64,000 bases of DNA from Patescibacteria group bacterium (GCA_041665145.1 JBAYJK010000001.1:165629-229628), one strand, 5' to 3'; counted from the stretch's first letter, positions 29,784-59,299 are shown. Program-made: numbers and translations. Notes: a model not told the origin generated them from the letters alone.

Positions 29784-29792
29784 AAACCGACC

Positions 29793-30710: not shown

Positions 30711-31014
30711 AGTAACCTCCGCACCCGCGATAAAGCCAATGGGCAACGCGGGTGACGGTTGCAGTTGATGTTTTTAATTTTTTAGCAATTTCCTTATATG
30801 AACTGCCGGTAAAAATAAGGCGGGCCATCTCGAGACGGTTGGCAAACTCTTCTATTTCAGCAGGGGTTAGCATGTCCCGCATAAGCGCTGCCGCTGCAGC
30901 CGTATCTTTCAATGAAGCAAATGCTCGTGTTAAATTTTCCTCCTTAATGTTACGGGGAGAAAAGTGCTCTGACTGTTTAAATTTACTAACAACACCTGTC
31001 CGCGCTTTTACCAT
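30676..31014 (-). CDS. TrpR-family / YerC-YecD-like regulator, copy 2 (112 aa)
   Basis: Has LTPAEIEEFANRLEMARL and the HTH EIAKKLKTSTATVTRVAHWL. The leaderless-type start has TGaTATAGT 6 nt upstream on the minus strand. Its 3' end overlaps the IUNH copy 1 gene by 35 nt (convergent). Confidence 0.8.
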   Translation of the reverse strand: MVKARTGVVSKFKQSEHFSPRNIKEENLTRAFASLKDTAAAAALMRDMLTPAEIEEFANRLEMARLIFTGSSYKEIAKKLKTSTATVTRVAHWLYRGCGGYFNFLTKQKSNS

Positions 31015-31033
31015 ATTTCTACTATATCACAGT

Positions 31034-31061
31034 CACTCCATTTAATTGTTTAAATGGAGTG
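31034..31061. promoter_or_regulatory. Candidate operator: perfect 12-bp inverted repeat CACTCCATTTAA-N4-TTAAATGGAGTG
   Basis: It sits between the divergent promoters of the TrpR-family copy 2 gene and the PRT-HAD operon, and abuts the plus-strand -35 box. Confidence 0.65.
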
Positions 31062-31062
31062 C

Positions 31063-31091
31063 TTGACATCAATGTATTAATGTGATAATAT
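31063..31091 (+). promoter_or_regulatory. Promoter TTGACA-17-TAATAT with TG extension
   Basis: TTGACA at 31063-31068, a 17-nt spacer, TG at 31083-31084 and TAATAT at 31086-31091. Confidence 0.7.
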
Positions 31092-31100
31092 GTTGAAGTC

Positions 31101-31169
31101 ATGAATATTTTACGCAAAAATATAGTTAGTCAAGAAATGCATCATAGCCCCACTCATTCGGGGCAATAA
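31101..31169 (+). CDS. Candidate 22-codon leader peptide MNILRKNIVSQEMHHSPTHSGQ
   Basis: The ATG is 9 nt after the -10 box. The His codons at 31140-31145 immediately precede hairpin arm 1. The stop at 31167-31169 lies just past arm 2. Confidence 0.35.
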   Translation: MNILRKNIVSQEMHHSPTHSGQ

Positions 31170-31198
31170 ATTTACCGCAACAAAATAGAAATTTATCA

Positions 31199-31220
31199 CC
31201 CCGCCAATGGCGGGGTTTTT
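31199..31220 (+). terminator. Leader terminator/attenuator hairpin CCCCGCC-aat-GGCGGGG + T5
   Basis: A 7-bp GC stem is followed by TTTTT, 36 nt upstream of ATG 31257. An alternative pairing of CGGGG (31159-31163) with CCCCG (31199-31203) is possible. Confidence 0.6.
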
Positions 31221-31256
31221 AGTGGGTTAAAACATTAATAATTAAAACAAAAAAAC

Positions 31257-32840
31257 ATGAAACCAGAAATACCAAAGTACATATTGACTGATGATAGCCG
31301 GGCACTTTTCTCTAAGTTAAACGGAGGAGAAGACATTATTGAAGATAGAGTATTTAACCAGGCTGCATCAAAATATTTTGCGATCATTAATCAGCAAATC
31401 GAGCAGGCATTTGATGGGCCACTGAAGATAGTTGGGGAAACGGAAAGAAGAATTGAAAGCCGACTGCAAAGCAGGGTTCGCTCCATTCTGAAATCGGATC
31501 AGAATGTAGTCTGTATTTGTCTGGACCGGTTTCTCTTCGCTGATTTTGATAAAGACCAGACCTTTGCTGACAGGTTTTTTAGATTTAGTACGTGTCGGAC
31601 TATTGACGGACGAAAAGAACCTCGACAAGGAAATCCTTCGTTTGCAGACCAAATTCAGAACTTGCTGAGAAGCATTCCCGATATTAGAAATAGGAAGGTG
31701 GTTGTCGTCGATGACGGTCTGTTTTCTGGCGGTACTATTAATGATTTCCTGATGTTACTCAAAAGTAACGGGATTGAAATAAATCTGGAAAAAATAATCG
31801 GATACATGGGTCCCCGATCGGTCATGAAAGCTTCAGACAGAAAAACTGAAATCCTGCAGCCCATAGACAATTTATTTGAATGGGTGGATGTGCGTGATTT
31901 TAGCCCGCTTGGAGGTAAAAAACTAAATGCCAGTGCCAATAATATGGTAACCACATCAATCCCATATTTATACCCATGGAGTGAGGGAAGTGCGGCAACA
32001 CTCGATATGTCTCCCGCATTTTTTGATACCAGTATCGCGATTATGAAAGGATTCAGACAATTAGTAGTAACGTACGAACTTTTGCGAAATACCAAATTAA
32101 GGTTCAGAGATTTGATTAAGGCCGGTTACCCTTTACCAACCGATAAAGAAAAGACTGTTCCCATCTCAATTAATGACACTGTTACCGATTATTTGGATCG
32201 TTGTATTGGTTTGGTGGAACAAGAGAAAAATAGAAAAGTGGTTATTTGCGACATGGATGGAACGTTTTACCAGCTTGATGGTAAAGGAGGTGGTTATCAA
32301 AATTCTAAGCTAGAGTTAGCAGTACAAACCAATGCCTTATTATTTATACAACGTAGAGAGAAATGCACACCCGATCAAGCACAGTTAATATTTTCTAGAG
32401 CCCAACAAGATCCAGTGGGGGCAAGTTTGTTCTTAGCGGAGAAATATGGAATTTCCCGTACAGATTATTTTAATGAAGTCTGGAATATCGATCCTGCTGG
32501 AATAGTTGTTAATTACGAAGTTGCAACTGGGTCGTTGTGCCAGTTTAAAGGAAAGTACCCGGGGGTGAAACTAGTTTTATTAACGTCAGCTCCCAGAGTT
32601 TGGGCTGAAAAAGTTTTAAAATTCTTGGGTATCAGGGAGCAATTTGAGCTTATATATACCGGAGAACAATTTGGGTCAAAAACAGAAGTTTTTGCACTGC
32701 TAGCTGGTCGTTATAAACCGGAAAACATGCTGTCTATTGGTGATCAGCAGGCAACTGATATTGAACCAGCTCAACAATTGGGAATGAGCACTCTCGTAAT
32801 TAATAGCCCCGACGAAGTTAGTAGAATATTACAATTATGA
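31257..32840 (+). CDS. Fusion protein: type I phosphoribosyltransferase-like N-domain + HAD-superfamily hydrolase C-domain
   Basis: Has the PRPP-binding motif KVVVVDDGLFSGGTI. HAD motif I is VVICDMDGTF, motif II is LLTSAP and motif III/IV is SIGDQQATD. Confidence 0.7.
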   Translation: MKPEIPKYILTDDSRALFSKLNGGEDIIEDRVFNQAASKYFAIINQQIEQAFDGPLKIVGETERRIESRLQSRVRSILKSDQNVVCICLDRFLFADFDKDQTFADRFFRFSTCRTIDGRKEPRQGNPSFADQIQNLLRSIPDIRNRKVVVVDDGLFSGGTINDFLMLLKSNGIEINLEKIIGYMGPRSVMKASDRKTEILQPIDNLFEWVDVRDFSPLGGKKLNASANNMVTTSIPYLYPWSEGSAATLDMSPAFFDTSIAIMKGFRQLVVTYELLRNTKLRFRDLIKAGYPLPTDKEKTVPISINDTVTDYLDRCIGLVEQEKNRKVVICDMDGTFYQLDGKGGGYQNSKLELAVQTNALLFIQRREKCTPDQAQLIFSRAQQDPVGASLFLAEKYGISRTDYFNEVWNIDPAGIVVNYEVATGSLCQFKGKYPGVKLVLLTSAPRVWAEKVLKFLGIREQFELIYTGEQFGSKTEVFALLAGRYKPENMLSIGDQQATDIEPAQQLGMSTLVINSPDEVSRILQL

Positions 32841-33745
32841 ATCAAATAATCATTGATACAGATCCGGGAGTTGACGATGCCTTAGCGATCGCCCTAGCTT
32901 GTCTTTCAAAACTGAATGTGGTCGCTCTGACAACGGTTTATGGTAATGTCAATATTGCCGATTCAACTCGCAATGCACTGACGATATTGTCAGTCATTAA
33001 TAAAAAAGTTTCCGTATACCAAGGGGCGAGTAAACCTTTGATAAATAATGCGATCAAGGCGCAATCTCACGGAGAAAAAGGATTGGGTGGATTCGCAACC
33101 AAACTTAATTGGCAAAAAAGCCGGCGTAGTGCACGAAAATACTTGGAAGATACCTTTGGCTCAGCAGCGGATACGTCTATTACGCTTGTATGTATTGGTC
33201 CTGCAACTAACATTGCCAAATTATTTATTGCCAATCCTCAATCTGTAACAAAAATAAAAGACCTCGTGATTTTAGGTGGGGTATTTAACGAAAAAGGGAA
33301 TATGTCTCAATATTCCGAGTTTAATGCTATCAATGACCCTGAAGCATTAAAAATAGTTTTAAATGCCAATTGCAATAAGGTGCTGATACCTATAAACATT
33401 TGCAGGAAGGTTGTCTTTAAAAAAAGTGATTTTAATAAACTAATAAATAAGAAATTACAGCGATCTTTTGGCGCTATTGCCGATGCTTATATCAACTATT
33501 ATACCTCTGGAAGTAAATATGGTCAGTTTACCGGTGGAGTAATGTACGATTTGCTCACTGTTGTCTATCTTCTAGAGCCGAAGTTATTTAAAACTATAGA
33601 TGCAAATGTAAATGTCATCACAAGATTGGGCCCAATGTACGGTAGGACCATAATAAAGAAAATAGGAAAAGTGAATTGCCGCGTCGTCAGCGAAATTAAG
33701 CCAAGAAAAGTAAAGCAAGTATTTTTTAACGTTTTAAATAAATAA
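32837..33745 (+). CDS. Inosine-uridine-preferring nucleoside hydrolase family (IUNH), copy 2
   Basis: Has IIIDTDPGVDDALAI. Its start overlaps the stop of the upstream gene (ATGA). Confidence 0.85.
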   Translation: MNQIIIDTDPGVDDALAIALACLSKLNVVALTTVYGNVNIADSTRNALTILSVINKKVSVYQGASKPLINNAIKAQSHGEKGLGGFATKLNWQKSRRSARKYLEDTFGSAADTSITLVCIGPATNIAKLFIANPQSVTKIKDLVILGGVFNEKGNMSQYSEFNAINDPEALKIVLNANCNKVLIPINICRKVVFKKSDFNKLINKKLQRSFGAIADAYINYYTSGSKYGQFTGGVMYDLLTVVYLLEPKLFKTIDANVNVITRLGPMYGRTIIKKIGKVNCRVVSEIKPRKVKQVFFNVLNK

Positions 33746-33747
33746 AA

Positions 33748-34839
33748 ATGGAACTAACAAAAATTCTTTCTAAGCTAATCACAATTCCTTCTTTTGTCGA
33801 TGAGAAAAACAACGAGCAAAAACTTGCCGTTTTTATCGAAAGTTATTTGAAGGTTAATGCTCCTTGGCTTAACTTGTCGCGCCAGTATGTGGCTGAGGAC
33901 CGATGGAATATTATCGCCGGTGAAGCTAAAAACCCGGAACTGGTTTTTGTCTGTCACATGGATACGGTGCAACCTACAGGTGATACGCAAAAAATGCTCT
34001 CTCCGTCAGAAAAAGACGGGTATATCTATGGGCTTGGAGCAGCCGACATGAAAGGCGGAACTGCAGCATTGCTTGCGGCGATAAAAGCTGTTGGTCCGAC
34101 AAAAAATGTCGCATATGTGTTTGACTGCGACGAAGAATATTACTTCAAGGGAGCCAAACAGTTATTGAAAAAATGTAAGTGGAATCCCCAACTGGTTATT
34201 TGTCCCGAACCGACGGATATGGAAATCGTAAACGGTTGTCGTGGAATTATTGAGATAAAATTAGACGTAATCGGAAAAAGTGCGCATGCCGGACGGCCTG
34301 ATTTTGGAATCAATGCAATCGAAAAAGCTGTTGCTGTTATCTCGGAACTTAAGAGTAAGATAGGCGAGTTTGATGAGAAGAAACTCGGTAGAACAACAGT
34401 GAACTTAAGTAGATTGGATGGGGGGAAATTACAGAATGGACAGATAATTACCCAAGGGAATGCAGTCCCCGATGTTGCGCGCGTACTCTTGGACATACGA
34501 CCGGCAAGCAATAAATTGAATGGCGATAGAATAATAAGGATGCTTATGACTATTGCGAAAAGGAATAATGTGACGTTGTCAGGTCCGACTGTTACGATTG
34601 ATTATCCGGCATATTATTCAATTCCGAACGAATGTATTAATAGGCCATATCGAGCCAATTTAGGAAAAGGTGGTTTTTACGAAGCGGCTTTATTTTCCCG
34701 AGCCTGGCAATGTACGGCATTTACATTCGGTCCGGGTGACGCAAGTACTTCGCACAGCCCTGATGAGCGGGTAAAACTAGCTGACTTGACGAGTGTAAAG
34801 AAGGTATTCGAAAAGCTTCTATTGACATATCGTGTATAA
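33748..34839 (+). CDS. M20-family amidohydrolase (ArgE/DapE-like), copy 2
   Basis: Has CHMDTV, GAADMKGG, DCDEEY and SAHAGRP motifs. Confidence 0.8.
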   Translation: MELTKILSKLITIPSFVDEKNNEQKLAVFIESYLKVNAPWLNLSRQYVAEDRWNIIAGEAKNPELVFVCHMDTVQPTGDTQKMLSPSEKDGYIYGLGAADMKGGTAALLAAIKAVGPTKNVAYVFDCDEEYYFKGAKQLLKKCKWNPQLVICPEPTDMEIVNGCRGIIEIKLDVIGKSAHAGRPDFGINAIEKAVAVISELKSKIGEFDEKKLGRTTVNLSRLDGGKLQNGQIITQGNAVPDVARVLLDIRPASNKLNGDRIIRMLMTIAKRNNVTLSGPTVTIDYPAYYSIPNECINRPYRANLGKGGFYEAALFSRAWQCTAFTFGPGDASTSHSPDERVKLADLTSVKKVFEKLLLTYRV

Positions 34840-34853
34840 TTATCATAGTTAAA

Positions 34854-35142
34854 AGCTTTGATAGAGACCGAGTAGCCCCGACGAGTCGTGGGTGAATTAC
34901 ACTCTAGAGCTGTAAGCTGAAAAGCAAGTAAGCCGAGCCGGGTGCGCCCCGTGATAGCGCAAGAGTATGTCAGCGTAAGCCGGAGTACTCGATAATGAGC
35001 GTTTGTGCTTTTAATCGAGTCCCGCATAATGGCGGGATTTTTTTTAGCATAAACTGGAAGACAAGGTGGTACCGCGAGCATTAAGCCCTCGCCCTTGTTG
35101 TGAGTCATATTTTTATGACTGACAGGGGTGAGGGCTTTTTTT
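34854..35142 (+). promoter_or_regulatory. T-box riboswitch leader (transcriptional), minimal Stem I, probable Tyr (UAC) specifier
   Basis: The T-box sequence is GGUGGUACCGCG (35065-35076). The antiterminator has helix A1 ACAAGG/CCUUGU, a 7-nt bulge UGGUACC and helix A2 GCGAG/CUCGC. It competes with a 15-bp terminator (35084-35098 / 35122-35136) followed by a T-run. The Stem I base is a K-turn: AGC-UUU-GA (34854-34861) opposite GA-GCU (34907-34911). The specifier loop reads ACCGAGUA / GAAUUACA. TATAAT at 34835-34840 is upstream. Confidence 0.75.
35020..35045 (+). promoter_or_regulatory. Stem III-position hairpin TCCCGC-ataatg-GCGGGA followed by T8 (terminator-like)
   Basis: A 6-bp GC stem plus U8 lies inside the T-box leader. 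It belongs to the CCCGC/GCGGG hairpin family seen at 31199, 52233 and 53241. Confidence 0.55.
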
Positions 35143-35259
35143 GTGGAAATGAAACATTTTAAAAACAGATGCACAGGAAGCAGGAATTTTTATTATATTC
35201 AGCCCTTCTATGGAGGGCGATGGTTGTTTGCTTTTATAAATTGGAAATCAAAAATTACT

Positions 35260-36294
35260 ATGAAAAAACAAAAAATGTTATGGTTTCAGGATGATTTAAA
35301 GCTAGGTGCTCGTAAGTCATGTTGGCAGAGAATAGATTCCCTCACAGGAGCTCTTGTACGAGCAGTTGGTCATCCGAATATGGATCATGAAATTGTGGAT
35401 CCAAGACCACATATAAGTGCGCTTGCTGAAAAGCTCCCACGGGACGCAACATGCGTTATTGACTTAACAAATGGCCAACTTATGGGAGTGCTGTCAGGAT
35501 TATTTGAGAGCAGCACTCTTGTTACTGGTTTCCATTTGAGCAGGCTGCGAGTTGTGTCTTCGGCACGGTTGGATGGTTCAGGTTTTATGTTAAATAAGAC
35601 AGTGAGAGAATTCGCTGCCTTACCATCGCTTATTGACACCTTCCGGACAGTGATACTGGATGATGTTGGTTGGTCTGGAAGATCAGCACTTGAGGTGTGC
35701 CGACTCTTTGGTCTTCCAGTAGCACAAACCACCTTTGGGTTTGTTATGGGTAATGCCGGTGAGTTTGGTCCTTCACCGGGAGCTGTAAATTTATTGCAGA
35801 GTCTGGGAGGTCGAGTAGTTACTGGTGGTTTGGTTGCGACACCCCGTGACGACGGATTTCATGTTTCAGATTTCTGTAGCACTAATAACATTTCTCATTC
35901 CGAATTAATAGAAGCTTTGTTGGTAATTCAGAGTTTGCGAGAGCATGCTGCTCAATTTCCTGGAGAGAGCAAAGAAGTAGAAAAAAGAATAATGCAGCTT
36001 TTTAAGGAGGCTCGCGATCTGCTCTTTCCAAACGCTCTTAGTTCGACTATGATAAAAGAATTAATGCGAGAGGGAAAGGTAATTTGTATGAACGGTATAC
36101 CAAAAGATGCACTCTTTCAGACGAATCCATTAAATTGGTTACTTCCTTCTTTTGCTAAGCGTGTTCGAAGTGAAGATTTGCAACAGAATTTGGCAATTGT
36201 CATTGGCTCTTTAGATGAGTTACGGGCGATCAAAGAAGAAGGTAATGTGCAAGGAATAGAAGGTAACTTTCTAAATATGGAGATGAGACTATGA
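35260..36294 (+). CDS. PRT-like protein (degenerate PRPP motif), paralogous in layout to the N-domain of the 31257 protein
   Basis: Has TVILDDVGWSGRSALEV (hydrophobic strand, DD, small residues). The start is moved to ATG 35260 because the track ORF from 35128 runs through the T-box terminator. Confidence 0.5.
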   Translation: MKKQKMLWFQDDLKLGARKSCWQRIDSLTGALVRAVGHPNMDHEIVDPRPHISALAEKLPRDATCVIDLTNGQLMGVLSGLFESSTLVTGFHLSRLRVVSSARLDGSGFMLNKTVREFAALPSLIDTFRTVILDDVGWSGRSALEVCRLFGLPVAQTTFGFVMGNAGEFGPSPGAVNLLQSLGGRVVTGGLVATPRDDGFHVSDFCSTNNISHSELIEALLVIQSLREHAAQFPGESKEVEKRIMQLFKEARDLLFPNALSSTMIKELMREGKVICMNGIPKDALFQTNPLNWLLPSFAKRVRSEDLQQNLAIVIGSLDELRAIKEEGNVQGIEGNFLNMEMRL

Positions 36295-36818
36295 CAAAGA
36301 AAAGAAAGATTCAAATAGCAGTTGTTGGTTCAATGTTCGACTTGCCGCAAAACCGGTCTACTATCGCGCTTGCAAGAGATATTGGAAGAGAATTAGCCAC
36401 TAATAAAGCAGTTTTGTTATATAGCTTCGAAGGGGATAGTCAATCACTTTCTTATATAGCAGCTAGAGAAGCTGAAAAATGTGGTGGAGAAATTATCGCA
36501 TTTCTTTGGGGTAATACGAAAGTGACGGGCTCTGTAGTAGGAAAAGCAGTTCGAACCGGGCAACTCCGAGGAGGAGGCAGAGAATTCCCACTAATTTTAA
36601 GTGCTAACGCTGTTATAAGTATTGGTGGTGGATCAGGGACTCTTATGGAGATAGCTATGTCTTATCAAGCGGGAATTCCTGTCATTGCTCTCGAAAATAC
36701 TGGTGGATGGAGTGAACGCCTGATGAATACGTTTATGGATGAAAGAAAAAGAAATAAAGTGCTTTCAGCAAAAGATGCTCGAAGTGCAGTGCTTCTGGCG
36801 ATAAAGGAAAGTATTTAG
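36291..36818 (+). CDS. TIGR00725 / LOG (SLOG)-family Rossmann protein
   Basis: Has IAVVGS at the N-terminus and the ISIGGGSGTLMEIAMSYQAGIPVIAL motif (GGGxGTxxE). ATGA overlap with the upstream gene. Confidence 0.7.
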   Translation: MTKKRKIQIAVVGSMFDLPQNRSTIALARDIGRELATNKAVLLYSFEGDSQSLSYIAAREAEKCGGEIIAFLWGNTKVTGSVVGKAVRTGQLRGGGREFPLILSANAVISIGGGSGTLMEIAMSYQAGIPVIALENTGGWSERLMNTFMDERKRNKVLSAKDARSAVLLAIKESI

Positions 36819-49959: not shown

Positions 49960-52041
49960 ATGAAACAAATTAATAAATCAATCGAACTGGCAGGACGAAA
50001 GCTGGTCTTTCGTATTGGCGAGGTTGCCGAACAAGCAACTGCCGCTGTTATAACTCAATACGGTGAAACAACAATTCTCACCACTGTTGTCGTCGGAAAA
50101 GAAAATCCTGACCTCGACTATTTTCCTCTTGGCGTAGAGTACGCTGAAAAACTGTATGCTGGTGGACGAATTAAAGGTTCTCGTTGGGTAAAGCGTGAAG
50201 GACGCCCGAATGACAGCGCCATACTTGCTGCACGACTAATTGATCGATCAGTTCGTCCGTTATTTGACGATTCATTCCGCAGAGACGTACAGGTCATTAA
50301 TACTGTTTTGTCGATCGACGGAGTTAATTCCCCTGAAATTGTTGCTGCTCTTGGTTCCTGTTGCGCATTATCATTATGTTCAATTCCCTGGAATGGTCCA
50401 GTGGCGACGCTTGAAATCGGATTGGTAAACGGTGAAAAAGGCGGAAAAGGACAATACATCGTTAATCCAACTTCACAGGAAGATAAATTATCAAGAATGA
50501 GCCTCATAGTTTCTGCTACGAATAAAAAGGTCGTCATGATCGAAACGAAGGCTGAGGAAGTTTCGAACGAGGAAGTTTCGGAAGGTATTAAACTTGCCAA
50601 AAAAGAAATGCTTCCCCTTATTGCTTTGTTTTCAGAACTTCGTAAGGAGGCAGGCGTAAAAGATTATGTTGCAAAAGCTACGGAAGAGAAAAAAGATGTT
50701 GTAACGTTAATCTCCAAAAAATACCATGAAGAACTTATAAAACGTCTTCAAGATATGGCTGATAAGGAAAATGTCGATGCATCAGGAGATGAACTGGTTA
50801 CAAAGATTGCGGAAGAGTTCCAACTCGAAGAAAAAGAAGCGCCAAAAGTTTTGAAGAAAATATATAAGAAACTGATGAAAGAGCTTGTTCTGAAAATGGG
50901 CAAGCGAGCTGACGGACGTAAAATGGATCAAGTCCGACCATTGTCCGCACAAGTAGGTGTCATTCCCCGAATTCATGGTTCAGCGATATTTAAGCGCGGA
51001 GCTACGCAAGTATTATCGATTGCTACCCTCGGCCCGCTTTCATTACAGCAATGGATTGAAAACCCGGAAGGCGAATTCATGAAACGTTATATTCATCATT
51101 ACTTTATGCCTCCGTACTCTGTCGGAGAAACGGGACGCGTCGGTACACCAAATAGGCGTGAAATCGGACATGGTGCATTGGCAGAAAAAGCCATTGAACC
51201 AATGTTGCCTGAGGAAATAAAATTCCCCTACACTGTCAGAATTGTTTCGGAAGTTTTGTCTTCGAACGGATCAACCTCAATGGCGTCCACGTGCGGATCA
51301 AGCTTGGCTCTTATGGACGCGGGAGTTCCTATCAAAGAGCAAGTCGCTGGTATTGCCATGGGACTTGTTCGCGAAGACGACACGAAGTATCAAATACTTA
51401 CCGACATTATTGGGATTGAAGACTTTTTCGGCGAGATGGATTTTAAAGTAGCCGGAACAAAAAACGGGATTACTGCTATTCAACTTGATGTCAAAAACGA
51501 CGGTATTAACGATGCAATGATTGATACCGCCTTATCAGGCGCTCAAGTAGCGCGAATGACCATTCTTGATGTCATGAATAAGGCGATCGACAAGCCACGT
51601 AAAGAGCTGTCGAAGTACGCACCTCGTGTTGTTATGCTTACACCTCCGGCTGACAAGATCGGCGAGATCATCGGACCGGGAGGAAAAAATATTAAAAAGC
51701 TCATCGCAGATACCGGTTGTGAAATCGATATCGACGACGACGGTAAAGTGTCAATCTCAGGCGTGAACGCCGAAGGGGTTGAACGGGCTGTCAGAGCAAT
51801 CGAGGCAATGTCCAAAGAATACAAACTTGGAGAAGTATACGAAGGAACAGTCATTAAAATACTTCCGTTCGGAGCAATCGTCGAGATTGGTCCAGGAAAA
51901 GAAGGCCTTTTACATGTCTCTCAAATGGGTATGGGATTTGTGAAAGATGCCAATGAAGTGTTCAAAGAGGGTCAATCAGCCAAGGTTGAAGTAGCTGAGT
52001 TAGATGATAGGGGCCGTATGAAATTCAAATTGGTGAAATAA
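49960..52041 (+). CDS. pnp: Polyribonucleotide nucleotidyltransferase (PNPase)
   Basis: Has two RNase PH domains, a KH domain (GPGGKNIKKL) and a C-terminal S1 domain (GTVIKILPFGAIVEI). Confidence 0.95.
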   Translation: MKQINKSIELAGRKLVFRIGEVAEQATAAVITQYGETTILTTVVVGKENPDLDYFPLGVEYAEKLYAGGRIKGSRWVKREGRPNDSAILAARLIDRSVRPLFDDSFRRDVQVINTVLSIDGVNSPEIVAALGSCCALSLCSIPWNGPVATLEIGLVNGEKGGKGQYIVNPTSQEDKLSRMSLIVSATNKKVVMIETKAEEVSNEEVSEGIKLAKKEMLPLIALFSELRKEAGVKDYVAKATEEKKDVVTLISKKYHEELIKRLQDMADKENVDASGDELVTKIAEEFQLEEKEAPKVLKKIYKKLMKELVLKMGKRADGRKMDQVRPLSAQVGVIPRIHGSAIFKRGATQVLSIATLGPLSLQQWIENPEGEFMKRYIHHYFMPPYSVGETGRVGTPNRREIGHGALAEKAIEPMLPEEIKFPYTVRIVSEVLSSNGSTSMASTCGSSLALMDAGVPIKEQVAGIAMGLVREDDTKYQILTDIIGIEDFFGEMDFKVAGTKNGITAIQLDVKNDGINDAMIDTALSGAQVARMTILDVMNKAIDKPRKELSKYAPRVVMLTPPADKIGEIIGPGGKNIKKLIADTGCEIDIDDDGKVSISGVNAEGVERAVRAIEAMSKEYKLGEVYEGTVIKILPFGAIVEIGPGKEGLLHVSQMGMGFVKDANEVFKEGQSAKVEVAELDDRGRMKFKLVK

Positions 52042-52064
52042 TATTTGAAACGTACGATTTGCGC

Positions 52065-52094
52065 TTGACTATTTTTTTATTCGTAGTCTAAAAT
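52065..52094 (+). promoter_or_regulatory. Candidate promoter TTGACT-18-TAAAAT downstream of pnp
   Basis: TTGACT at 52065-52070 and TAAAAT at 52089-52094. Confidence 0.4.
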
Positions 52095-52120
52095 ACTACC
52101 GTTACATATCTGATGTATAA

Positions 52121-52144
52121 AACTCCACGTGTTGGAGTTTTTTT
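52121..52144 (+). terminator. Intrinsic terminator AACTCCA-cgtgt-TGGAGTT + T-run (pnp terminator and/or leader attenuator)
   Basis: A 5-7 bp stem is followed by T7. An 11-codon ORF (52113-52148, MYKTPRVGVFL) reads through it. Confidence 0.6.
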
Positions 52145-52232
52145 GTGAAATAAATTGATTTATTAGCTGATGATTACGCACAAAATTGTTCTTTGCATTA
52201 CAAATAAAGAGCTTTGGCTCTTGAAATTTTAA

Positions 52233-52257
52233 CCCCGCTTAAAGCGGGATTTTTTTT
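52233..52257 (+). promoter_or_regulatory. Terminator-like hairpin CCCGC-ttaaa-GCGGG + T8, ending 4 nt before ATG 52262
   Basis: A GC stem plus U8 sits immediately upstream of the start codon, with no SD sequence between them. Confidence 0.5.
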
Positions 52258-52261
52258 GACT

Positions 52262-53161
52262 ATGACAGATAGATTACGTAGCGGTTCAATAACAGAAGAG
52301 CACGTTCGAAGAATCACCGAGTACCATGGTCGACGGTTAGTTATCATAACGGGCAGTCTGCCCTCCACACAAGAAATTTACGCCCAAGGAGGAATCCAAC
52401 TGAGTGGAGATCCTGCTTTGCGTTTATTTTCAGGCAGGGGGGAAGATTATTACGGAAAAACAAGTGGTGTCGGGCCGATTGTCAATTCACACAGAGCGCA
52501 TTCTCATACGGTCGAAGCGGCTGGAGCTAAAACTATCGGCGTGATGGTTGGAGTTCAAACACACCCTGAGCTTTTGCAGACTGATATTACTGATCTGGCG
52601 CTGGGTACTCGTGATACCGCACATTCATTCGTGAGTCCGGATGGCACCGTTCAGACGGTGCTCAATAAGGCTGATAAAGGTGACTCTACACAAATTGACG
52701 CTTTGGCTCGGCAGTTTTTTATTATGGCAGAGCGGGGAGATCGGGCTAGCATTGCAACGTCGATGGCGCAATTAAGTCCCGATCATAATTCAATTCGACT
52801 CCTTTTAACTCGACTGCACTATGGAGTCGTCGCTCCTGAAATTTCTGAGGAGGAGCTGAAGGAATATATGCTTGCGCATGGTGCAGGAATTGCCGGAAGC
52901 ATCGACTGGTTAGTTGCGGTAAAAATGGGTGTTATCCAGCCGTTCAATAGAGCCACGTTCGTTCATCAACAACTTACTATCGGAGCAGATTCTCCGGAAG
53001 TTGCACCACAGGATTTATGGAGATGGATGCGAACGTCTCCTCAGGAAAGGGAACCGCTTCAGGTTGTTGACGAAGTACGCGGTGAACTTCCGTTTTGCCC
53101 TGGAGATCCTGCAAACCGGCAGCAGCTTCTTTTGCTCAGTCGAGGTATTTTAACCCAATAA
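52262..53161 (+). CDS. Hypothetical protein (300 aa); possible Rossmann/SLOG-like N-half (very tentative)
   Basis: The ORF starts at ATG 52262; the track's TTG at 52214 would read through the hairpin. The segment RLVIITGS...AAGAKTIGVMVGV weakly recalls TIGR00725-type proteins. Confidence 0.45.
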   Translation: MTDRLRSGSITEEHVRRITEYHGRRLVIITGSLPSTQEIYAQGGIQLSGDPALRLFSGRGEDYYGKTSGVGPIVNSHRAHSHTVEAAGAKTIGVMVGVQTHPELLQTDITDLALGTRDTAHSFVSPDGTVQTVLNKADKGDSTQIDALARQFFIMAERGDRASIATSMAQLSPDHNSIRLLLTRLHYGVVAPEISEEELKEYMLAHGAGIAGSIDWLVAVKMGVIQPFNRATFVHQQLTIGADSPEVAPQDLWRWMRTSPQEREPLQVVDEVRGELPFCPGDPANRQQLLLLSRGILTQ

Positions 53162-53163
53162 AC

Positions 53164-53192
53164 TTGCAATCCGTCTATTCGCTCGGTATAAT
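53164..53192 (+). promoter_or_regulatory. Promoter TTGCAA-17-TATAAT
   Basis: TTGCAA at 53164-53169, a 17-nt spacer and TATAAT at 53187-53192. Confidence 0.7.
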
Positions 53193-53197
53193 TAAAC

Positions 53198-53266
53198 ATG
53201 GATAGGTTGGAATCCGACAGTAGGAAACTGTTTTTATTAGCCCCGCATTTTTGCGGGGTTTTTTAG
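53198..53266 (+). CDS. Candidate leaderless 22-codon upstream ORF MDRLESDSRKLFLLAPHFCGVF that reads through a terminator hairpin
   Basis: The ATG is 5 nt after the -10 box. The ORF covers the hairpin at 53241-53264. Its stop (TAG, 53264-53266) is followed by GGGGGA (an SD-like sequence) and ATG 53279. Confidence 0.35.
   Translation: MDRLESDSRKLFLLAPHFCGVF
53241..53264 (+). terminator. Leader terminator-like hairpin CCCCGC-attttt-GCGGGG + T6
   Basis: A 6-bp GC stem and U-run sit between the promoter and the HD-gene start. Confidence 0.55.
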
Positions 53267-53278
53267 TTGGGGGAAACT

Positions 53279-54700
53279 ATGAGTGCAGAACAAACAATCA
53301 TTTATCAAAAAATATCAGACAGAGCCCGGGGAGTGAGAAACTGTTACCCGTATGATTCAAGCCCCCCGATGGTCTTTCATAATGGGGACAAACCGGTCCA
53401 TCTTCGAGATTATCTGCTAAAAAGTAAAGTTGACGAAGAACATATCATTCGGTTGGAACAAGCACTCAACAATGGACCAAAAGATCGTATTGGCACTATA
53501 AATTCATATAGATTGCGAGATTATGTAGAACAGATTCAAGAAAGAAAAAGGATAGAAAATCGAAAAGCTCCACGAATCGCACGTCGTCATGCTGGTAAAA
53601 AGGAACGGCAAGTCTTACAGTATTGGCTAGCCCAAGCTGGTGAACAATCAAATCTACCCGATTTAAATCCCTACAAACTTGATCTTGGTGATTTATTTTC
53701 ATTAATGAATAACCGGCTTGCATGTGTCTTCGAAGCGGTAAATCCTTCTCTTGATGAATCATTACCCCTCGGGTTCAATAAGCATGGTGAACAACATGTC
53801 ACTAATGTTACCTTACAAACATTGGCACTACTGCGGATAAGGCAACATCTGCTATATGGGGGCAAAGTTCCTCTTGAACGACAAAAAGAAGAGCATGCTA
53901 TTTTAGCACGAGGAACTGCCATCGGTATGGGGCACGATGTTGGAAATCTTCTCAACAGAGATAATCACGAAGCGCTTTCTCCAGCCATATTAGGTACGCT
54001 TATCCCCGAACTGCTCTGCGACGCGCACGAGTGGGACAGAATTACACAGGGAATTGCGTTTCACAACGATTCTCTTATAGAACTTGTTTTTGCTGCTCAT
54101 GGCTTTACAACTCGTGCAGAAGAAATTAATTGGCTGAGAGATAATTTATGGCCTGATGCACTTGCGGTACTTGTCAGCGACATATCTCAATCCGTGGGTC
54201 GGGACAGAGTTTCGGATAAGCCAGATACTCGGGCAGCAGTTGATGCAGACAGACATCTTGCGTTGAGCCTGCTATTTCAATATGGAGAGCTTTCACTTTC
54301 TGAGGACGGAAAACATATGCTTTGTCCGCTCGATTTTACTCCTGGATTATCAAAGGAAGAAGAAGCCAGATATAGTCAATTTGCCCGTGGTAAAGCAAAT
54401 CAAGTGGTTGTTCCGACGCACACACATCAAATACACAGTGAATACGGAATTCCTCACCTATTCACCGAGGATTCAGATCTGAAGCACGTTTTTTTTGACA
54501 AGATAGTGCTCATGGTAGAAGCGGCATTTGCTCTGTTTCCCACGCTTGAAATATTTGATTTCCAAACAACCGATAGAGTGCCTGGTTCTCAAGGGGGAAC
54601 AATAATTATCGAAAGAATTTCGAGAGCTGGAATAGAAGCTGACATTGCTCAACTAAAACTTAAATATGTTACCAAAGAAGCAAAACAGGATGGCAACTAA
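53279..54700 (+). CDS. HD-domain metal-dependent phosphohydrolase
   Basis: Has H...HD motifs: KHGEQHVTNV and AIGMGHDVGN. SD-like GGGGGA lies 5 nt upstream of the ATG. Confidence 0.65.
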   Translation: MSAEQTIIYQKISDRARGVRNCYPYDSSPPMVFHNGDKPVHLRDYLLKSKVDEEHIIRLEQALNNGPKDRIGTINSYRLRDYVEQIQERKRIENRKAPRIARRHAGKKERQVLQYWLAQAGEQSNLPDLNPYKLDLGDLFSLMNNRLACVFEAVNPSLDESLPLGFNKHGEQHVTNVTLQTLALLRIRQHLLYGGKVPLERQKEEHAILARGTAIGMGHDVGNLLNRDNHEALSPAILGTLIPELLCDAHEWDRITQGIAFHNDSLIELVFAAHGFTTRAEEINWLRDNLWPDALAVLVSDISQSVGRDRVSDKPDTRAAVDADRHLALSLLFQYGELSLSEDGKHMLCPLDFTPGLSKEEEARYSQFARGKANQVVVPTHTHQIHSEYGIPHLFTEDSDLKHVFFDKIVLMVEAAFALFPTLEIFDFQTTDRVPGSQGGTIIIERISRAGIEADIAQLKLKYVTKEAKQDGN

Positions 54701-55337
54701 AATAATTACCATAGTCGGCAATATCGGGTCTGGAAAATCGACGCTGCTTCCTGTTGTGACCAAAGCCCTCAAAGCCAAAATGCTTGATGCCGATAGTTTG
54801 TTTCAAACTACTGACCCATTCAGAGAACTTTATCTGAGAGATTTAAAAAGATGGGCATTTGCGAATGAGCTGTGGCTCACGACACAGCGGGCAAGCATGT
54901 TGGAAAAACACGTTCGAAAATATCAGGGAAAACTAACCGTCATTGATAGCGGGCTTCTGATGAGTTGGGTATATACCTACAGCCATTTTGTAACAAAAAA
55001 TATTACCAAAGCGGAATGGGACTTATATCAACAGCTGTTTAAGGGATTAACAAAAAATTCACTTGAGGGGTCTCTCGTTATTTTTCTGGATTGTTCCATA
55101 AAAACTCTTCTGCAGCGAATTAAAAAAAGAGGCAGAGGCTATGAATTAAAGTTCTATACGGCTTCCTATTTGAGGCAGATTCAAAAAGGATTACGAGCGC
55201 TTAAACAACAATTTAAAAAATGGAATATTAGGGCGGTCGTAGTTTCTGAGAAGGCAGCCGGAAATTTTGATCAAGACAAGAAAGATAGACAAAAAATAAT
55301 TAAAATCATTTATAAATCTTACAACAACCGGAAATGA
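54690..55337 (+). CDS. Deoxynucleoside kinase family protein
   Basis: Has the P-loop IVGNIGSGKSTL, the LID-like RIKKRGRGYE and ERS-like motifs. The start at ATG 54690 overlaps the end of the HD gene by 11 nt. Confidence 0.8.
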   Translation: MATKIITIVGNIGSGKSTLLPVVTKALKAKMLDADSLFQTTDPFRELYLRDLKRWAFANELWLTTQRASMLEKHVRKYQGKLTVIDSGLLMSWVYTYSHFVTKNITKAEWDLYQQLFKGLTKNSLEGSLVIFLDCSIKTLLQRIKKRGRGYELKFYTASYLRQIQKGLRALKQQFKKWNIRAVVVSEKAAGNFDQDKKDRQKIIKIIYKSYNNRK

Positions 55338-56512
55338 ATCATGTCGATGTCGAACCGGTGGGACTCGAGCGCCATACCGCCCAACAGTTAGTTCAGGGAT
55401 TATTTCAAAACTCCGGTTTGCATGTTGTTAATATGGAACCACTCCAACAGGGTGCATTCTCGAGAGGGAGAGTTGTTGTCGTTCAAAATGGGGGTATCGA
55501 TACGCGGAGGTTGTTTTTGAAGCATCCGACACATATCACCGGGGTACTTACGCACTCGCACATGGACGAGCTGCATACAAATGCCCGTGCAATACCTCAT
55601 GGTATGACTACTCACGGCGTACTTGGAATGCGCAACGACCATGTTTTACATCCATTGGAAGCGGGGCATCGTGTTGAACGAATATATATGGTTTTAGACG
55701 CATTACCGGCTGAATCGATAAAGCTCACACGACTGCTGAGCCACTACGGTTTAGACACTGTTCAATCTGAAAGAACTCCCGTCGTAGACGCGGTCCACAT
55801 GGCGTTTCTTTTGAATAATATGAGTACTATATACAGCAACGTAATAGATGTGCTTGCAACTATTCATGAAGGAGCGCTTCCTCCAGAAAATGAGCGCGCA
55901 CGTTTGTATGCTGCCGGCCTTCAGAACATAATTACCGACCCAATCCGACTTGACGGAATAGCCAGTATTTATTTTGGATTTGGACAGGAATCCGCACTCA
56001 ACCATGATGCCTTCATGATGTTACGGAAGCGAATGGTATTACTTGCCCAAGCAAAAGGTGGCGAAGCGCAACGTTTGCGTACTGTTCATGGTGATTCATG
56101 GGGACCGAATATATTTGTGGACAACCACTTACAAACCCATTTTATAGATCCGGCAATTGCGCTTTCCGACGCAGGACTTGATGTTGTATTTGCTACGGCT
56201 GATATTGCGCATATTGCTATTAAGGAAGGAGTTCCTGAAGCTCCACAGATTTTTCTCGGTTTTGCGGACGAACTGGTAGACCATTATGCTCGAAAAACGG
56301 GAGACGTATCGATAAGAAAAAATATGGCTTTATTCTACGGTTTTAAAGGATTTGTTCGGGCTGTCTTTGACGCAAAAACGGAAGAATCACGGATGCAGGC
56401 ATTTTGCGGTGCACTTGGAGCAGTCACTCTAGCATTACGGGACCCTAATTTTGAATTCAGATTCTCTGACTTGGGAAAATATGCTGCCGTTGGAAAACAA
56501 CAATTACACTAA
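55334..56512 (+). CDS. Aminoglycoside/choline-kinase-like phosphotransferase (protein-kinase-like fold)
   Basis: Has a catalytic-loop-like VHGDSWGPNIFV and a downstream FIDPA...SDAGLD (Brenner/DxD-type motifs). ATGA overlap with the upstream gene. Confidence 0.6.
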   Translation: MNHVDVEPVGLERHTAQQLVQGLFQNSGLHVVNMEPLQQGAFSRGRVVVVQNGGIDTRRLFLKHPTHITGVLTHSHMDELHTNARAIPHGMTTHGVLGMRNDHVLHPLEAGHRVERIYMVLDALPAESIKLTRLLSHYGLDTVQSERTPVVDAVHMAFLLNNMSTIYSNVIDVLATIHEGALPPENERARLYAAGLQNIITDPIRLDGIASIYFGFGQESALNHDAFMMLRKRMVLLAQAKGGEAQRLRTVHGDSWGPNIFVDNHLQTHFIDPAIALSDAGLDVVFATADIAHIAIKEGVPEAPQIFLGFADELVDHYARKTGDVSIRKNMALFYGFKGFVRAVFDAKTEESRMQAFCGALGAVTLALRDPNFEFRFSDLGKYAAVGKQQLH

Positions 56513-57112
56513 GAAATTGTTTCCATATTCAAGTCGCTTATGAGCGAGGATTAGTCCAATTTTTCGAATTTCTGGGTGAATGAACGTGGGCAATCTCCAA
56601 TTAATTACTTCCTTATTCACAAACCGTTCATTGTCAGCTTTTGAAAATGTCGGTTTCACGCGGTCCACGTCAATCATTCCCAACGTATCCGCCTCCATAA
56701 TGGAAATTTCATCGACGCCTTTCAAGGAATCAACTTTGTCGTGAATCCATACGAGATGTGCTGTTTCGTTAATCTGTTGGCTGTTGACGAATTGAGAGCA
56801 GGAACTGTTTAATAAGTGTTTTACTTTTTCGGCACCTCTGTCCATATGTGAAAGTTTTTGTTTAGCGATTTCTTTGGGGTCATCGCTGTTAAAACCATCA
56901 AATAATCCGATATATCCCCAGTCATGCGCATAGGCTGCCGGAATCATTACATACGGGTCAAGGTCATTCTCTGTATTGTTCAAAATGTATTTCATCCAAA
57001 AGACAACTGCTTCGGTGTGGGGCCGATCAAAATTTTTCCGTCCTCGGTCGAGATCCGGAAGTATAGCGTGTTGGAGAATCTCTTCAAATACTGGAGGAAT
57101 ACTTTTCGGCAT
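56504..57112 (-). CDS. HD-domain phosphohydrolase
   Basis: Has RPHTEAV ... AAYAHDWGY (H..HD). The start at ATG 57112 is 6 nt after TATAAT (57119-57124, minus strand). Confidence 0.7.
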   Translation of the reverse strand: MPKSIPPVFEEILQHAILPDLDRGRKNFDRPHTEAVVFWMKYILNNTENDLDPYVMIPAAYAHDWGYIGLFDGFNSDDPKEIAKQKLSHMDRGAEKVKHLLNSSCSQFVNSQQINETAHLVWIHDKVDSLKGVDEISIMEADTLGMIDVDRVKPTFSKADNERFVNKEVINWRLPTFIHPEIRKIGLILAHKRLEYGNNFLV

Positions 57113-57160
57113 GCAGCTATTATATAGCAACAATTTCTGAGTTTGTATATAATTGGTCAC

Positions 57161-59299
57161 ATGGGACGACACAAACAGATGAAGATTCCGTTTTTGAAAA
57201 TGAAGCTGAAGTCGGGTACGATTTACAGTATTTTTGCGCTCCTTATGTTTTTGGCATTTTTGTTGACCATTTTTTCGTTTTACCAGAAAGCGACATTTCT
57301 TAATTCACTTAACGAACTGTTGGTGTTTTATTTTGGAAAGGGTGCAATATTCACTCCGGTTATGTTTTTGTTTGCCGCCGGCGTGATGATTCAAACAAAG
57401 AAAATGCGCATTGTCAAACCTCATTGGTTTTTGGGTTATATGATTATGTTTGTGTCGTATCTCATTATTCTTAATGCCGGTTATTTCGGTTCGACATTCA
57501 GTTCGCAGATTTCGGACTTTATTTCACGGCCGGGTACGATTGTGTCATTTGTTATCATCTTTCTAATCGGAGCACTGGTTATGTTTGAAATGTCGATTAT
57601 AGACGGGATTAAGGTAGTGGCAAACTTCGTTGCTTCGCTGTCGGGTCAGATGGAAAAAATGCAGGGAACTCTCAGTAAGGGTAAAGAAAAGAACGAGCTA
57701 CTCAGCCGCGGTAACAAAGATGATTTTGTAGGAGGCGGTAACAAAAAGGAACATGATCATATGCTGATACCCAAGTCCAATGTGACTCTTTCCAAAGACA
57801 CGCCGATAAAAGGCACTATCGACGGTTCATTCAAGCCAATAGAGCATAAATCCACCGGTGTTGCCTGGAAATTTCCTCCTTTATCATTATTGGATGCAAG
57901 TAAAGGAACAGATGCTGACAGAGGAGACGTAAAGCATAATTCTGACATGATCGAGGAAACACTCGACAGTTTCGGCATTAAAGCCCGTGTTGCAGACGTA
58001 AATTATGGTCCTGCTATCACCCAATATGCGATACAGATTGCCAAGGGAGTTAATCTTAGCAAGGTAACCGCTTTATCAAACAACCTTGCTCTTGCACTGG
58101 CTGCTCCCAACGGACAAATCCGTATTGAGGCGCCGATTCCCGGAAAATCACTTATTGGTATAGAGGTTCCAAATATCCGTTCTCAAGTAGTGACTCTGAG
58201 ACAAATGCTGTCTGATCCGATCTTTGGCGACCGGTCAAAATTGCTACTTGTTCCGATGGGGGTTGATGTTTCTGGTCAACAAGTGGCTCTGGAAATTAAT
58301 AAAATGCCCCATGTGCTTGTTGCGGGAACTACTGGCTCAGGAAAGTCGGTTATGCTTTCTTCGTGGATATGTACCCTCATGTTCAGAACAACTCCTGACG
58401 AGGTCGGCTTGGTACTGATTGACCCGAAACGCGTGACATTCATGATGTTTGACGAAACCCCACATCTTATTACTCCCGTTATAACTGATCTTACACAGAC
58501 GGTATCGGCACTGAAATGGGCAGTCAAAGAAATGGAAGACCGCTACAAAACCCTTGCTGATGCGCGGAGTAGGGATATTTTTTCTTATAATGAAGCAGCT
58601 GAACGTGATAAACGCATGCGACTGATCATTATATGTATTGATGAGCTTGCTGATCTTATGATGTATGCTTCAAAAGAAGTGGAAGACTCGATAACGAGGA
58701 TTGCCCAAAAGGCGCGTGCTGTCGGGATTTATTTAGTAGTAGCAACGCAACGGCCTTCGGTCGATGTTATTACCGGTCTCATGAAAGCGAATATACCCGC
58801 ACGTATTGCTTTTAATGTTTCGAGTATGATTGATTCGAGGGTTATTATCGACATGCCAGGTGCGGAAAAATTGCTCGGTCGTGGTGATATGCTTTTCCTG
58901 TCACCCGAGCAATCGAAACCACGGAGAATTCAAGGTCCGTTTGTTACCGACAAAGAATTGAAGAGTATGGTCGAGTTTCTGAAAACAACTACTCCAGTTG
59001 TTCATTATACCGAGGAAGTTACCCAACAATCCGTGAAGCAAGTGATGGACTCTAAGGGTAATGTATCAATAAAATCGACAAATCACGATGCATTATTTGC
59101 GGATGTAGTTCGGTTTGTCTGTCAGACTAAAAAAGCATCATCATCTCTGTTGCAACGTAAATTCTCTATCGGATATTCCCGAGCGGCGCGTATTGTTGAC
59201 GAGCTAGAACAGGCAGGCGTTGTGGGACCTGCTGACGGCCCGAAAGCTCGCGATATTCTCGTGAGTGATCCGGAAGAATTTTTGAAAAGTCTCTCGTAA
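57161..59299 (+). CDS. ftsK: DNA translocase FtsK
   Basis: Has N-terminal TM helices, the motor-domain Walker A GTTGSGKS, Walker B IIICIDELADL and the C-terminal gamma winged helix (LLQRKFSIGYSRAARIVDELE). ATG 57161 is 7 nt after TATAAT (57148-57153). Confidence 0.9.
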   Translation: MGRHKQMKIPFLKMKLKSGTIYSIFALLMFLAFLLTIFSFYQKATFLNSLNELLVFYFGKGAIFTPVMFLFAAGVMIQTKKMRIVKPHWFLGYMIMFVSYLIILNAGYFGSTFSSQISDFISRPGTIVSFVIIFLIGALVMFEMSIIDGIKVVANFVASLSGQMEKMQGTLSKGKEKNELLSRGNKDDFVGGGNKKEHDHMLIPKSNVTLSKDTPIKGTIDGSFKPIEHKSTGVAWKFPPLSLLDASKGTDADRGDVKHNSDMIEETLDSFGIKARVADVNYGPAITQYAIQIAKGVNLSKVTALSNNLALALAAPNGQIRIEAPIPGKSLIGIEVPNIRSQVVTLRQMLSDPIFGDRSKLLLVPMGVDVSGQQVALEINKMPHVLVAGTTGSGKSVMLSSWICTLMFRTTPDEVGLVLIDPKRVTFMMFDETPHLITPVITDLTQTVSALKWAVKEMEDRYKTLADARSRDIFSYNEAAERDKRMRLIIICIDELADLMMYASKEVEDSITRIAQKARAVGIYLVVATQRPSVDVITGLMKANIPARIAFNVSSMIDSRVIIDMPGAEKLLGRGDMLFLSPEQSKPRRIQGPFVTDKELKSMVEFLKTTTPVVHYTEEVTQQSVKQVMDSKGNVSIKSTNHDALFADVVRFVCQTKKASSSLLQRKFSIGYSRAARIVDELEQAGVVGPADGPKARDILVSDPEEFLKSLS

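Follow-up and report, generated by a model that had tools for sequence, protein, structure and literature searches.

The 64 kb window considered here, that is, the whole stretch of DNA that was analysed, comes from a metagenome-assembled genome (MAG) of the Patescibacteria (NCBI locus tags WC775_027xx). Between pnp (49960-52041) and ftsK (57161-59299) lies a stretch of five genes, of which the last four form a conserved Patescibacteria cassette that probably serves nucleotide turnover and the salvage of (deoxy)nucleosides. The first gene, P1 (52262-53161, plus strand), encodes a protein of 299 aa, counted from an ATG that is identical to the NCBI start. It is followed on the same strand by P2 (53279-54700), which encodes a large protein of 473 aa that is predicted to belong to the HD superfamily; by a deoxynucleoside kinase (dNK) gene (54690-55337; 215 aa, motif GNIGSGKST); and by a gene for a kinase-like protein (55334-56512; 392 aa, motif HGDSWGPNIF). 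The fifth gene (56504-57112) is on the minus strand and encodes a small HD protein of 202 aa. P2 overlaps dNK by 11 nt, dNK overlaps the kinase-like gene by 4 nt (ATGA), and the kinase-like and small HD genes are convergent, with a 9-nt overlap. All five genes except dNK are publicly annotated as “hypothetical”. The open reading frames (ORFs), motifs, gene overlaps and a promoter-like site at 53164 are present as given in a preliminary description of the locus.

The cassette was compared across 41 related loci, referred to here by L-numbers; 29 genome loci were fetched with the small HD protein as the query. The order seen in the window, P2, dNK and the kinase-like gene facing a convergent small HD gene, is identical in L010 (Ca. 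Woesebacteria) and L011, and about seven genomes beyond these two carry a partial or rearranged version. L008 has dNK and the kinase-like gene facing the small HD gene, L012 has P2 and dNK facing it, L015 and L022 are rearranged, and L025 retains only dNK and the convergent small HD gene. In L039, a P2-family gene is found near the small HD gene and a gene of the uridine-kinase family; the 337-aa protein encoded between P2 and small HD in this locus is not a relative of the kinase-like protein. In L041, a purine nucleoside phosphorylase (PNP) gene follows the P2-family gene. In different genomic positions, and with proteins that share 33-55% identity, the gene order, the start/stop overlaps and the convergent overlap are all preserved. 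The three overlapping genes, previously described for the window as an operon, form a conserved unit with the convergent HD gene in other genomes, and scattering of the genes was not seen in the relatives.

The first slot of the cassette is variable. In L002 to L007 and L037, it is occupied by a gene for a protein of about 280 aa, and the loci of both database relatives of the kinase-like protein, which represent two lineages with different neighbourhoods, read ~280-aa protein, dNK and kinase-like protein, followed by the convergent small HD. Neither P1 nor P2 is a homologue of this slot-mate in L002 and L004; both pairings were tried and rejected. The slot-mate, which is absent from the window, has the invariant motifs FDVDDxTH, YVTAR and FIDDS in L002, L004 and L015, and sub-threshold matches to HAD-IA/pyrimidine 5'-nucleotidase families (E 0.04-0.19) at motif IV. 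There was no support from PDB, and an hhalign comparison with the window's own HAD-domain protein did not confirm the membership. The slot-mate is tentatively considered a HAD phosphatase from its motifs. That the first slot holds either an HD hydrolase or a protein with DxDxT and DD motifs fits a phosphohydrolase role for this position.

The neighbourhoods of the cassette support a nucleotide-metabolic role. The neighbours include thymidine kinase (TK), GuaA and a phosphoribosyltransferase (PRTase) in L010, PNP and a PRTase in L022, and NrdR and ribonucleotide reductase in L002. Within two genes on either side of the small HD gene in the 29 genomes, the most frequent families are serine hydroxymethyltransferase (SHMT; 14), PRTase (10), dNK (6), GuaA (5), endonuclease-IV-type (5), Ham1 (2) and PNP (2). 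The nucleoside theme that had been proposed for the locus is thereby reinforced. No single neighbour family travels with the cassette, neither the salvage genes, nor pnp or ftsK, nor the genes of island 1, a second cluster in the window (29118-36818), indicating that the position of the cassette is lineage-specific. A connection with island 1 had been proposed, and no co-occurrence of its genes with the cassette was found within 8 kb on either side in any relative. By Pfam, island 1 encodes an acetyltransferase, two IU-nucleoside hydrolases and two small proteins of the Trp-repressor family. Its other products are a PRTase-HAD fusion of 527 aa and an M20 peptidase, as well as a LOG/SLOG-like protein (LDcluster4) and one of 339 aa without annotation.

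Two further observations were made in these loci. Short ORFs beside the cassette in L004 (5903-6706) and L005 (4824-6144) match IMPDH, GATase and GMP_synt_C and look like fragments of guaB and guaA that are possibly decaying. The records of L008, L009, L011, L012, L016, L019, L021-L023, L027 and L029 are titled “uncultured Pseudomonadales bacterium”, an apparent taxonomy-label artefact on small HD records of Patescibacteria type; one of the isolate names contains “PATE”.

P1 is a lineage-specific neighbour that lies outside the conserved cassette. It has no match in Pfam, NCBIfam, PDB sequences, PADLOC or phage genomes, and no relative in the 41 related loci, even at E<10. The distribution of GC over its codon positions is that of a typical coding sequence, and its public annotation is hypothetical (WC775_02750). 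A phage origin was considered, and neither phage nor plasmid relatives were found. This protein had been described as an orphan of 300 aa flanking the operon; it is missing from every related locus and does not belong to the conserved unit.

The locus had also been called an accessory island. The third-position GC content (GC3) of the genes in the region is 0.31-0.42, compared to 0.38-0.42 for housekeeping genes, and no flanking direct repeats, tRNA or mobile-element gene were found around the cassette in the window. A foreign-island origin is rejected, given the lack of a GC3 shift, flanking direct repeats and a tRNA. What remains of the island label is that the presence and position of the cassette do vary between lineages.

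The dNK is the most readily classified of the four cassette proteins. It matches Pfam PF01712 with 82.1 bits (threshold 27, E 6e-23) over profile positions 1-198 of 203 and has a predicted LID of R143-x3-R147-G-R149-x2-E152 (RIKKRGRGYE). Residues G10, N11, G15, K16, R143, R147, G148, R149 and E152 do not vary among 10 cassette-linked homologues. By its sequence, it is a genuine PF01712 member, and the earlier kinase assignment is borne out by the score, the P-loop and the LID. The classical dNK, dCK and dGK enzymes carry an E-R-S motif. This motif is replaced by D86-S87-G88 in 10 out of 10 homologues, and the protein is therefore treated as a divergent subgroup.

The kinase-like protein belongs to a rare family. 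Two relatives were found in a search of 5.8 billion proteins and five more in the related loci, making eight members including that of the window. All eight match Fructosamin_kin (E≤0.1), while four match APH and five EcKL; these matches cover the C-lobe only. The window protein scores 13.8 bits against Fructosamin_kin, which has a threshold of 22.4, and two members, P0003 (22.7) and P0004 (22.4), just reach it. A profile of the family matches ribulosamine-3-kinase (6oid) with E 3e-5; the single window sequence had yielded no meaningful match among PDB sequences. G40, S43, G45, H252-G253-D254, N259 and D272 are invariant in the eight sequences, and the putative catalytic loop, HxDxxxxN, aligns with the loops of APH(3') (1nd4) and ribulosamine kinase (6oid). 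At the superfamily level, the protein is thus predicted to be a small-molecule kinase of the fructosamine-kinase/APH-like type, and the previous APH-like assignment holds at that level, with the Fructosamin_kin match in all members and the invariant HGDxWxxN loop.

The P2 family emerges only from exhaustive searching. The single P2 sequence has no match in Pfam, NCBIfam or PDB sequences (matches to nanobodies are spurious), and a word-indexed homologue search with P2 returned only P2 itself. An exhaustive HMMER search, however, yielded 144 representative relatives of about 400 aa that match residues ~125-470; residues 1-125 of P2 are a lineage-specific N-terminal extension. In an alignment of 50 members, H169, H173, H219-D220, R227, D301 and R310 are invariant, and H230 and H262 are conserved in at least 90%. 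The Pfam HD family (PF01966) is matched at E≤0.01 by 14 of the 50 members, the best with 5e-8, and not by the P2 of the window. Against PDB sequences, the family profile matches a Cas10 HD domain (0.0017) and the HD hydrolase 2pq7 (0.006), and Cas3-type HD nucleases are also among its best matches. The AlphaFold2 (AF2) model has a pLDDT of 88 and a pTM of 0.87. Foldseek with this model gave nothing better than E 0.25 in PDB or BFVD, and with PDB alone the best E was 0.48, with no dNTPase. P2 is accordingly placed, by its conserved residues and profile matches, as a predicted HD-superfamily member of an uncurated family.

Two candidate classes, besides others, had been named for the HD proteins, the SAMHD1-like dNTPases and the YfbR-like 5'-nucleotidases. 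For P2, the superfamily assignment stands, and it could be placed in neither the SAMHD1/dGTPase nor the YfbR class. A SAMHD1/dGTPase type is not supported, since there is neither a sequence match (Pfam, NCBIfam, PDB sequences) nor a fold match (Foldseek). In dGTPases, the HD domain is accompanied by an HD_assoc domain, and this is absent among the Pfam matches of the window P2 and the 50 family members.

Of the cassette proteins, the small HD protein is the best conserved and the most widespread, rather than the mere flank it had been taken for. It has 49-55% identity to its cassette partners in other lineages, and its family comprises 553 clusters, almost all from Patescibacteria, many of them with PF01966. 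Relatives score 28.2 and 24.1 bits against the Pfam HD threshold of 22, and the window copy 17.3. The AF2 model has a pLDDT of 96.3, and the approximately 30 best Foldseek matches are almost all HD/phosphodiesterase (PDE) folds, with probabilities up to 1.0. The nearest folds are YGK1, a SidE-type PDE, HD-GYP, YpgQ and YedJ, all of them weak (TM 0.4-0.6); the top match, YGK1, has E 0.02 and TM 0.42-0.45, and SAMHD1 is a weak match with E 0.56. A profile of the family has no match among PDB sequences, even when built with 53 sequences, and the single window sequence gave nothing meaningful there either. The invariant residues are H32, H63-D64, H89, H124-D125, E140 and D142. The fold and ligands bear out the HD superfamily for this protein as well, and again not the YfbR or SAMHD1 class. 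A YfbR/YGK1-type 5'-deoxynucleotidase is not supported, given the extra invariant H89 and H124 and the lack of a sequence match, leaving the weak YGK1 fold match as the sole link. Separately, the two arms of a 21-nt inverted repeat (56508-56528 and 57122-57142; 18 of 21 positions complementary) lie almost exactly at the two ends of the small HD gene. A rough estimate of the chance expectation for such a repeat in the region is 0.1-0.5.

Both HD proteins appear to share an extended metal site. The six-residue pattern H..HD..H..H..D, which is diagnostic of dinuclear sites in the HD superfamily (PMC8177086), is found in P2 as H173, H219-D220, H230, H262 and D301 and in the small HD protein as H32, H63-D64, H89, H124 and D142. 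A dinuclear-type ligand set is thus predicted for both from primary sequence.

The cassette is preceded by a sigma-70-like promoter (53164-53192, plus strand; TTGCAA-17-TATAAT, 10/12) and a 5' leader (53198-53278). The leader, about 65 nt, ends in a GC hairpin and U-run, with the terminator-like hairpin at 53239-53260 and a U-run whose end is 12 nt upstream of the ATG. The minimum free energy of the leader is -27.5 kcal/mol (z = -3.2). A putative leaderless mini-ORF of 22 codons (53198-53266, plus strand; MDRLESDSRKLFLLAPHFCGVF) has its ATG at the probable transcription start and runs through the hairpin. This layout recurs in L002 and L004. Both keep the -35 and the extended -10, followed after about 6 nt by an AAC-ATGGA segment, although their first gene is not homologous. 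The L002 mini-ORF (~8452-8484; 10 codons) terminates 7 nt short of the hairpin, and that of L004 (~6819-6899; 26 codons) runs through it; the three peptides share no conservation beyond M-D/E. Since the intergenic region in L004 is divergent, its hairpin is not the terminator of an upstream gene. The layout suggests transcription attenuation, and leaderless leader-peptide attenuation could operate at the window, L002 and L004 leaders. Rfam at gathering score gives one tRNA only in the window, and a relaxed scan of 52030-53290 gave nothing below E 0.05.

The promoter of the cassette is one of the two best promoter-like sites in the region (both 10/12), the other being at 52065-52094; each is followed by a GC hairpin and T-run before a start codon. 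The latter site, TTGACT-18-TAAAAT, begins 24 nt past the stop codon of pnp, and about 30 nt further on is a hairpin, CTCCA-CGTGT-TGGAG, with a T7 run. In this segment (52065-52146), either a very short transcript begins or the hairpin is the terminator of pnp and the promoter match is due to chance. A leader hairpin family common to the cassette and island 1 had also been proposed. The stem CCCGC-N3-8-GCGGG occurs four times in 64 kb, compared to 0.17 expected, all on the plus strand with a T-run just upstream of a start codon: two in island 1 (31200-31214 and 35021-35036) and two in the cassette region (52234-52248 and 53242-53257). The likeness extends to the stem and T-run, and the rest of the four leaders are not alike. 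Upstream of an unannotated gene in island 1, at 34900-35145, are two successive segments that look structured and both terminate in a GC hairpin and T-run, and neither belongs to an Rfam family at gathering score.

A different leader is found in the relatives. A rod-shaped RNA precedes the P2-family gene in L010, L011 and L022 and precedes PRTase, GuaA or unannotated genes in other small HD loci. It ends in a terminator and consists of a helix P1 with a U-run, a helix P2, a conserved internal loop (CCAAGUAACRAA / GGAAACCAAGU) and a variable P3. RNAalifold on raw MAFFT alignments was uninformative, with the variable helices misaligned, and anchoring on the conserved boxes solved this. Helix P2 occurs in two unrelated sequence classes, both of which can pair; 78% of cells pair, compared to 62% in shuffles (0/500), and compensatory change is seen in seven of nine pairs. 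A covariance model, R1, detects 17 copies of the RNA, distributed over 16 of the 29 loci; four of these copies had not been used in building the model. The window, L002 and L004 have none. On the minus strand, the copies are at L009 7366-7440, L010 11810-11875, L011 11737-11805, L013 7106-7201, L014 1944-2040 and 2742-2835, L015 3036-3104, L016 11116-11194, L017 9757-9839, L019 11698-11783, L021 8970-9063, L027 5499-5569, L031 10035-10105, L033 10174-10244 and L036 9343-9438, and on the plus strand at L022 4744-4815 and L028 3879-3943. The RNA has no match in Rfam 15, and a Guanine-II riboswitch was rejected, since that is a three-way junction and this is a rod. The rod-shaped RNA is a riboswitch candidate, the ligand of which is presumably purine- or nucleotide-related.

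A scheme for how the cassette works would be as follows; we infer all of the substrates, the cycle of kinase and hydrolases and the part of the leader in regulation. A single transcript starting from the promoter at 53164-53192 would pass the terminator-type leader and cover P2, dNK and the kinase-like gene, with the small HD gene converging at the end. The dNK would convert imported deoxynucleosides to deoxynucleoside monophosphates (dNMPs), and P2 and the small HD protein would take phosphate or pyrophosphate off (deoxy)nucleotides. Together, the dNK and the hydrolases would govern both pool size and pool balance, in the manner of a kinase/nucleotidase substrate cycle. The kinase-like protein would phosphorylate some sugar or nucleoside hydroxyl, and read-through of the leader terminator would adjust expression. 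HD phosphatases have roles in the control of (d)NTP pools (PMC8177086). The term “pool editing”, used in the preliminary description, is one that we infer from gene content and context.

We hold that such a salvage and turnover role is probable on balance, with several points weighing against it. Three of the four cassette proteins have no established substrate, and the HAD assignment of the slot-mate comes from motifs and sub-threshold matches only. The nearest relatives of the kinase-like protein act on ketosamines, methylthioribose or antibiotics, not nucleosides. About 20 of the 29 small HD loci lack dNK and the kinase, which points to a role of its own for the small HD protein. The six-residue pattern is also found in oxygenases, Ap4A hydrolase and cyclic-dinucleotide phosphodiesterases (PMC8177086). 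In HD phosphatases, an arginine a short distance N-terminal of the first metal histidine is strictly conserved (PMC8177086), and in the 50-member alignment of the P2 family there is no arginine that is invariant or at least 90% conserved before H169/H173; the only columns with at least 90% conservation there are M1, L158, G165 and N167. With this arginine missing and with profile matches of the Cas10/Cas3 type, P2 could be a phosphodiesterase or nuclease.

In a broader alternative, which we consider quite unlikely, both HD proteins would act as phosphodiesterases or nucleases, or would hydrolyse signalling nucleotides such as Ap4A, (p)ppGpp or cyclic dinucleotides. They would release or remove nucleotides upstream of salvage, and their only link to the kinases would be the products passed on to them. 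Both HD families have the dinuclear-type pattern, the ligand spacing of the small HD protein is near that of YqeK, and besides nucleotidases its model matches HD-GYP and SidE-type PDE domains, as the P2 profile does the HD domains of Cas10 and Cas3. However, neither a GYP motif nor a nucleic-acid-binding or sensor domain is present, the protein that takes the place of P2 in some lineages has HAD motifs, which are phosphatase-like, and the structural matches are all weak (TM 0.4-0.6). The nearest small HD folds, which include the YpgQ-type NTP pyrophosphohydrolases and the YGK1/YfbR nucleotidases, would also suit an alternative that is unlikely though not far-fetched: house-cleaning, or specialised salvage of non-canonical or modified (deoxy)nucleosides and nucleotides, instead of canonical pool balance. 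The HD proteins would then hydrolyse aberrant (d)NTPs or (d)NMPs, and the kinases would bring particular nucleosides, or a sugar moiety, back into use. Ham1/ITPase and endonuclease-IV-type genes recur near the small HD gene, and relatives of the kinase-like protein act on modified sugars. Against this, there is no direct evidence for a non-canonical substrate, and the dominant neighbours (PRTases, GuaA, TK, PNP and SHMT) are those of canonical salvage and of dTMP synthesis.

It is very unlikely that the genes are adjacent by accident and work independently. The small HD gene is often found without other cassette genes, and small genomes are gene-dense, but the synteny and the overlaps kept at 33-55% identity in different positions largely refute this idea. 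Least probable of all, to a degree that makes it barely credible, is an anti-phage defence island that depletes nucleotides. HD dNTPases and nucleotide kinases do occur in some defence systems, and the cassette is patchy between lineages. PADLOC, however, gives only generic P-loop matches of dNK, and on this result a defence system was rejected; P1 has no phage or plasmid relatives, there is no sensor/effector architecture, and the setting is a housekeeping one, with pnp and ftsK here and salvage genes elsewhere.

Returning to salvage and turnover, the cassette is regarded as a salvage operon of a known kind, built from largely uncharacterised enzyme families. There is also some prospect, rather a slim one, that it represents an undescribed route of nucleotide handling, in which a fructosamine-kinase-like enzyme acting on a (deoxy)nucleoside or (deoxy)ribose hydroxyl would be combined with two dinuclear-type HD hydrolases, whose families have no characterised member, and a divergent dNK in a Patescibacteria-wide salvage regulon controlled by leader terminators. 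The window would then use a short attenuator, possibly with mini-ORF read-through, and the relatives a riboswitch-like RNA that is not listed in Rfam.

To our knowledge, the ultra-small Patescibacteria have no de novo nucleotide synthesis and live on a host-derived supply. The cassette names four candidate enzymes for their handling of (deoxy)nucleotides, three of which are publicly “hypothetical”. The fold of the P2 family is predicted with confidence and has no relative among solved structures, the small HD protein is found in hundreds of Patescibacteria lineages, and candidate regulatory RNAs in front of these operons also emerge. If the substrates were worked out, a gap would be filled in the metabolic reconstruction of a very large and mostly uncultured bacterial radiation.

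A genetically linked cassette of this kind, with dNK and HD phosphohydrolases, was not found in full-text literature searches. One close parallel is found in the dNK/5'-nucleotidase cycles, with the HAD-type cdN and mdN of mammals and the HD-type YfbR and YGK1. As in these, a dNK is combined with phosphohydrolases, here encoded with it and predicted to be of the HD superfamily, in a salvage context, and some lineages pair dNK with a protein that has HAD-like motifs. Unlike YfbR and YGK1, the small HD protein has the six-residue pattern instead of the mononuclear H..HD..D, and there is no significant sequence match. With YqeK (Ap4A hydrolase) and YpgQ (NTP pyrophosphohydrolase), it shares a length of about 190-200 aa and an all-helical HD fold; YpgQ gives the best mutual TM (0.55/0.59), and the spacing H32/H63-D64/H89/H124/D142 resembles H21/H50-D51/H83/H109/D127 of YqeK. 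However, sequence similarity to either is not detectable, and YqeK is a weak Foldseek match (E 1.1). P2 resembles the dNTP triphosphohydrolases SAMHD1, Dgt and EF1143 in its predicted HD metal site and a loosely similar HDxGN..R..H segment and differs from them in having no Pfam, NCBIfam, PDB-sequence or Foldseek match.

The kinase-like protein differs from fructosamine-3-kinase (FN3K)/ribulosamine kinase, MtnK and APH(3') in scoring at or below the family thresholds, in being 100-130 residues longer than FN3K, in a beta3 lysine that is not kept in all members and in the overlap of its gene with a dNK gene. It shares with them the HGDxWxxN loop, the downstream metal-binding D in xIDP, a D-x-x-x-x-x-x-D segment and an N-terminal GxxSxG loop. 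For the leader, the comparison is with E. coli pyrBI, a leader-terminator attenuator of a nucleotide operon. The two are unrelated in sequence, and the mini-ORF peptides show no conservation, but the arrangement is alike: a promoter, a short leader, a U-rich tract, a GC hairpin with a U-run before the first gene and, possibly, a short ORF that extends into the hairpin.

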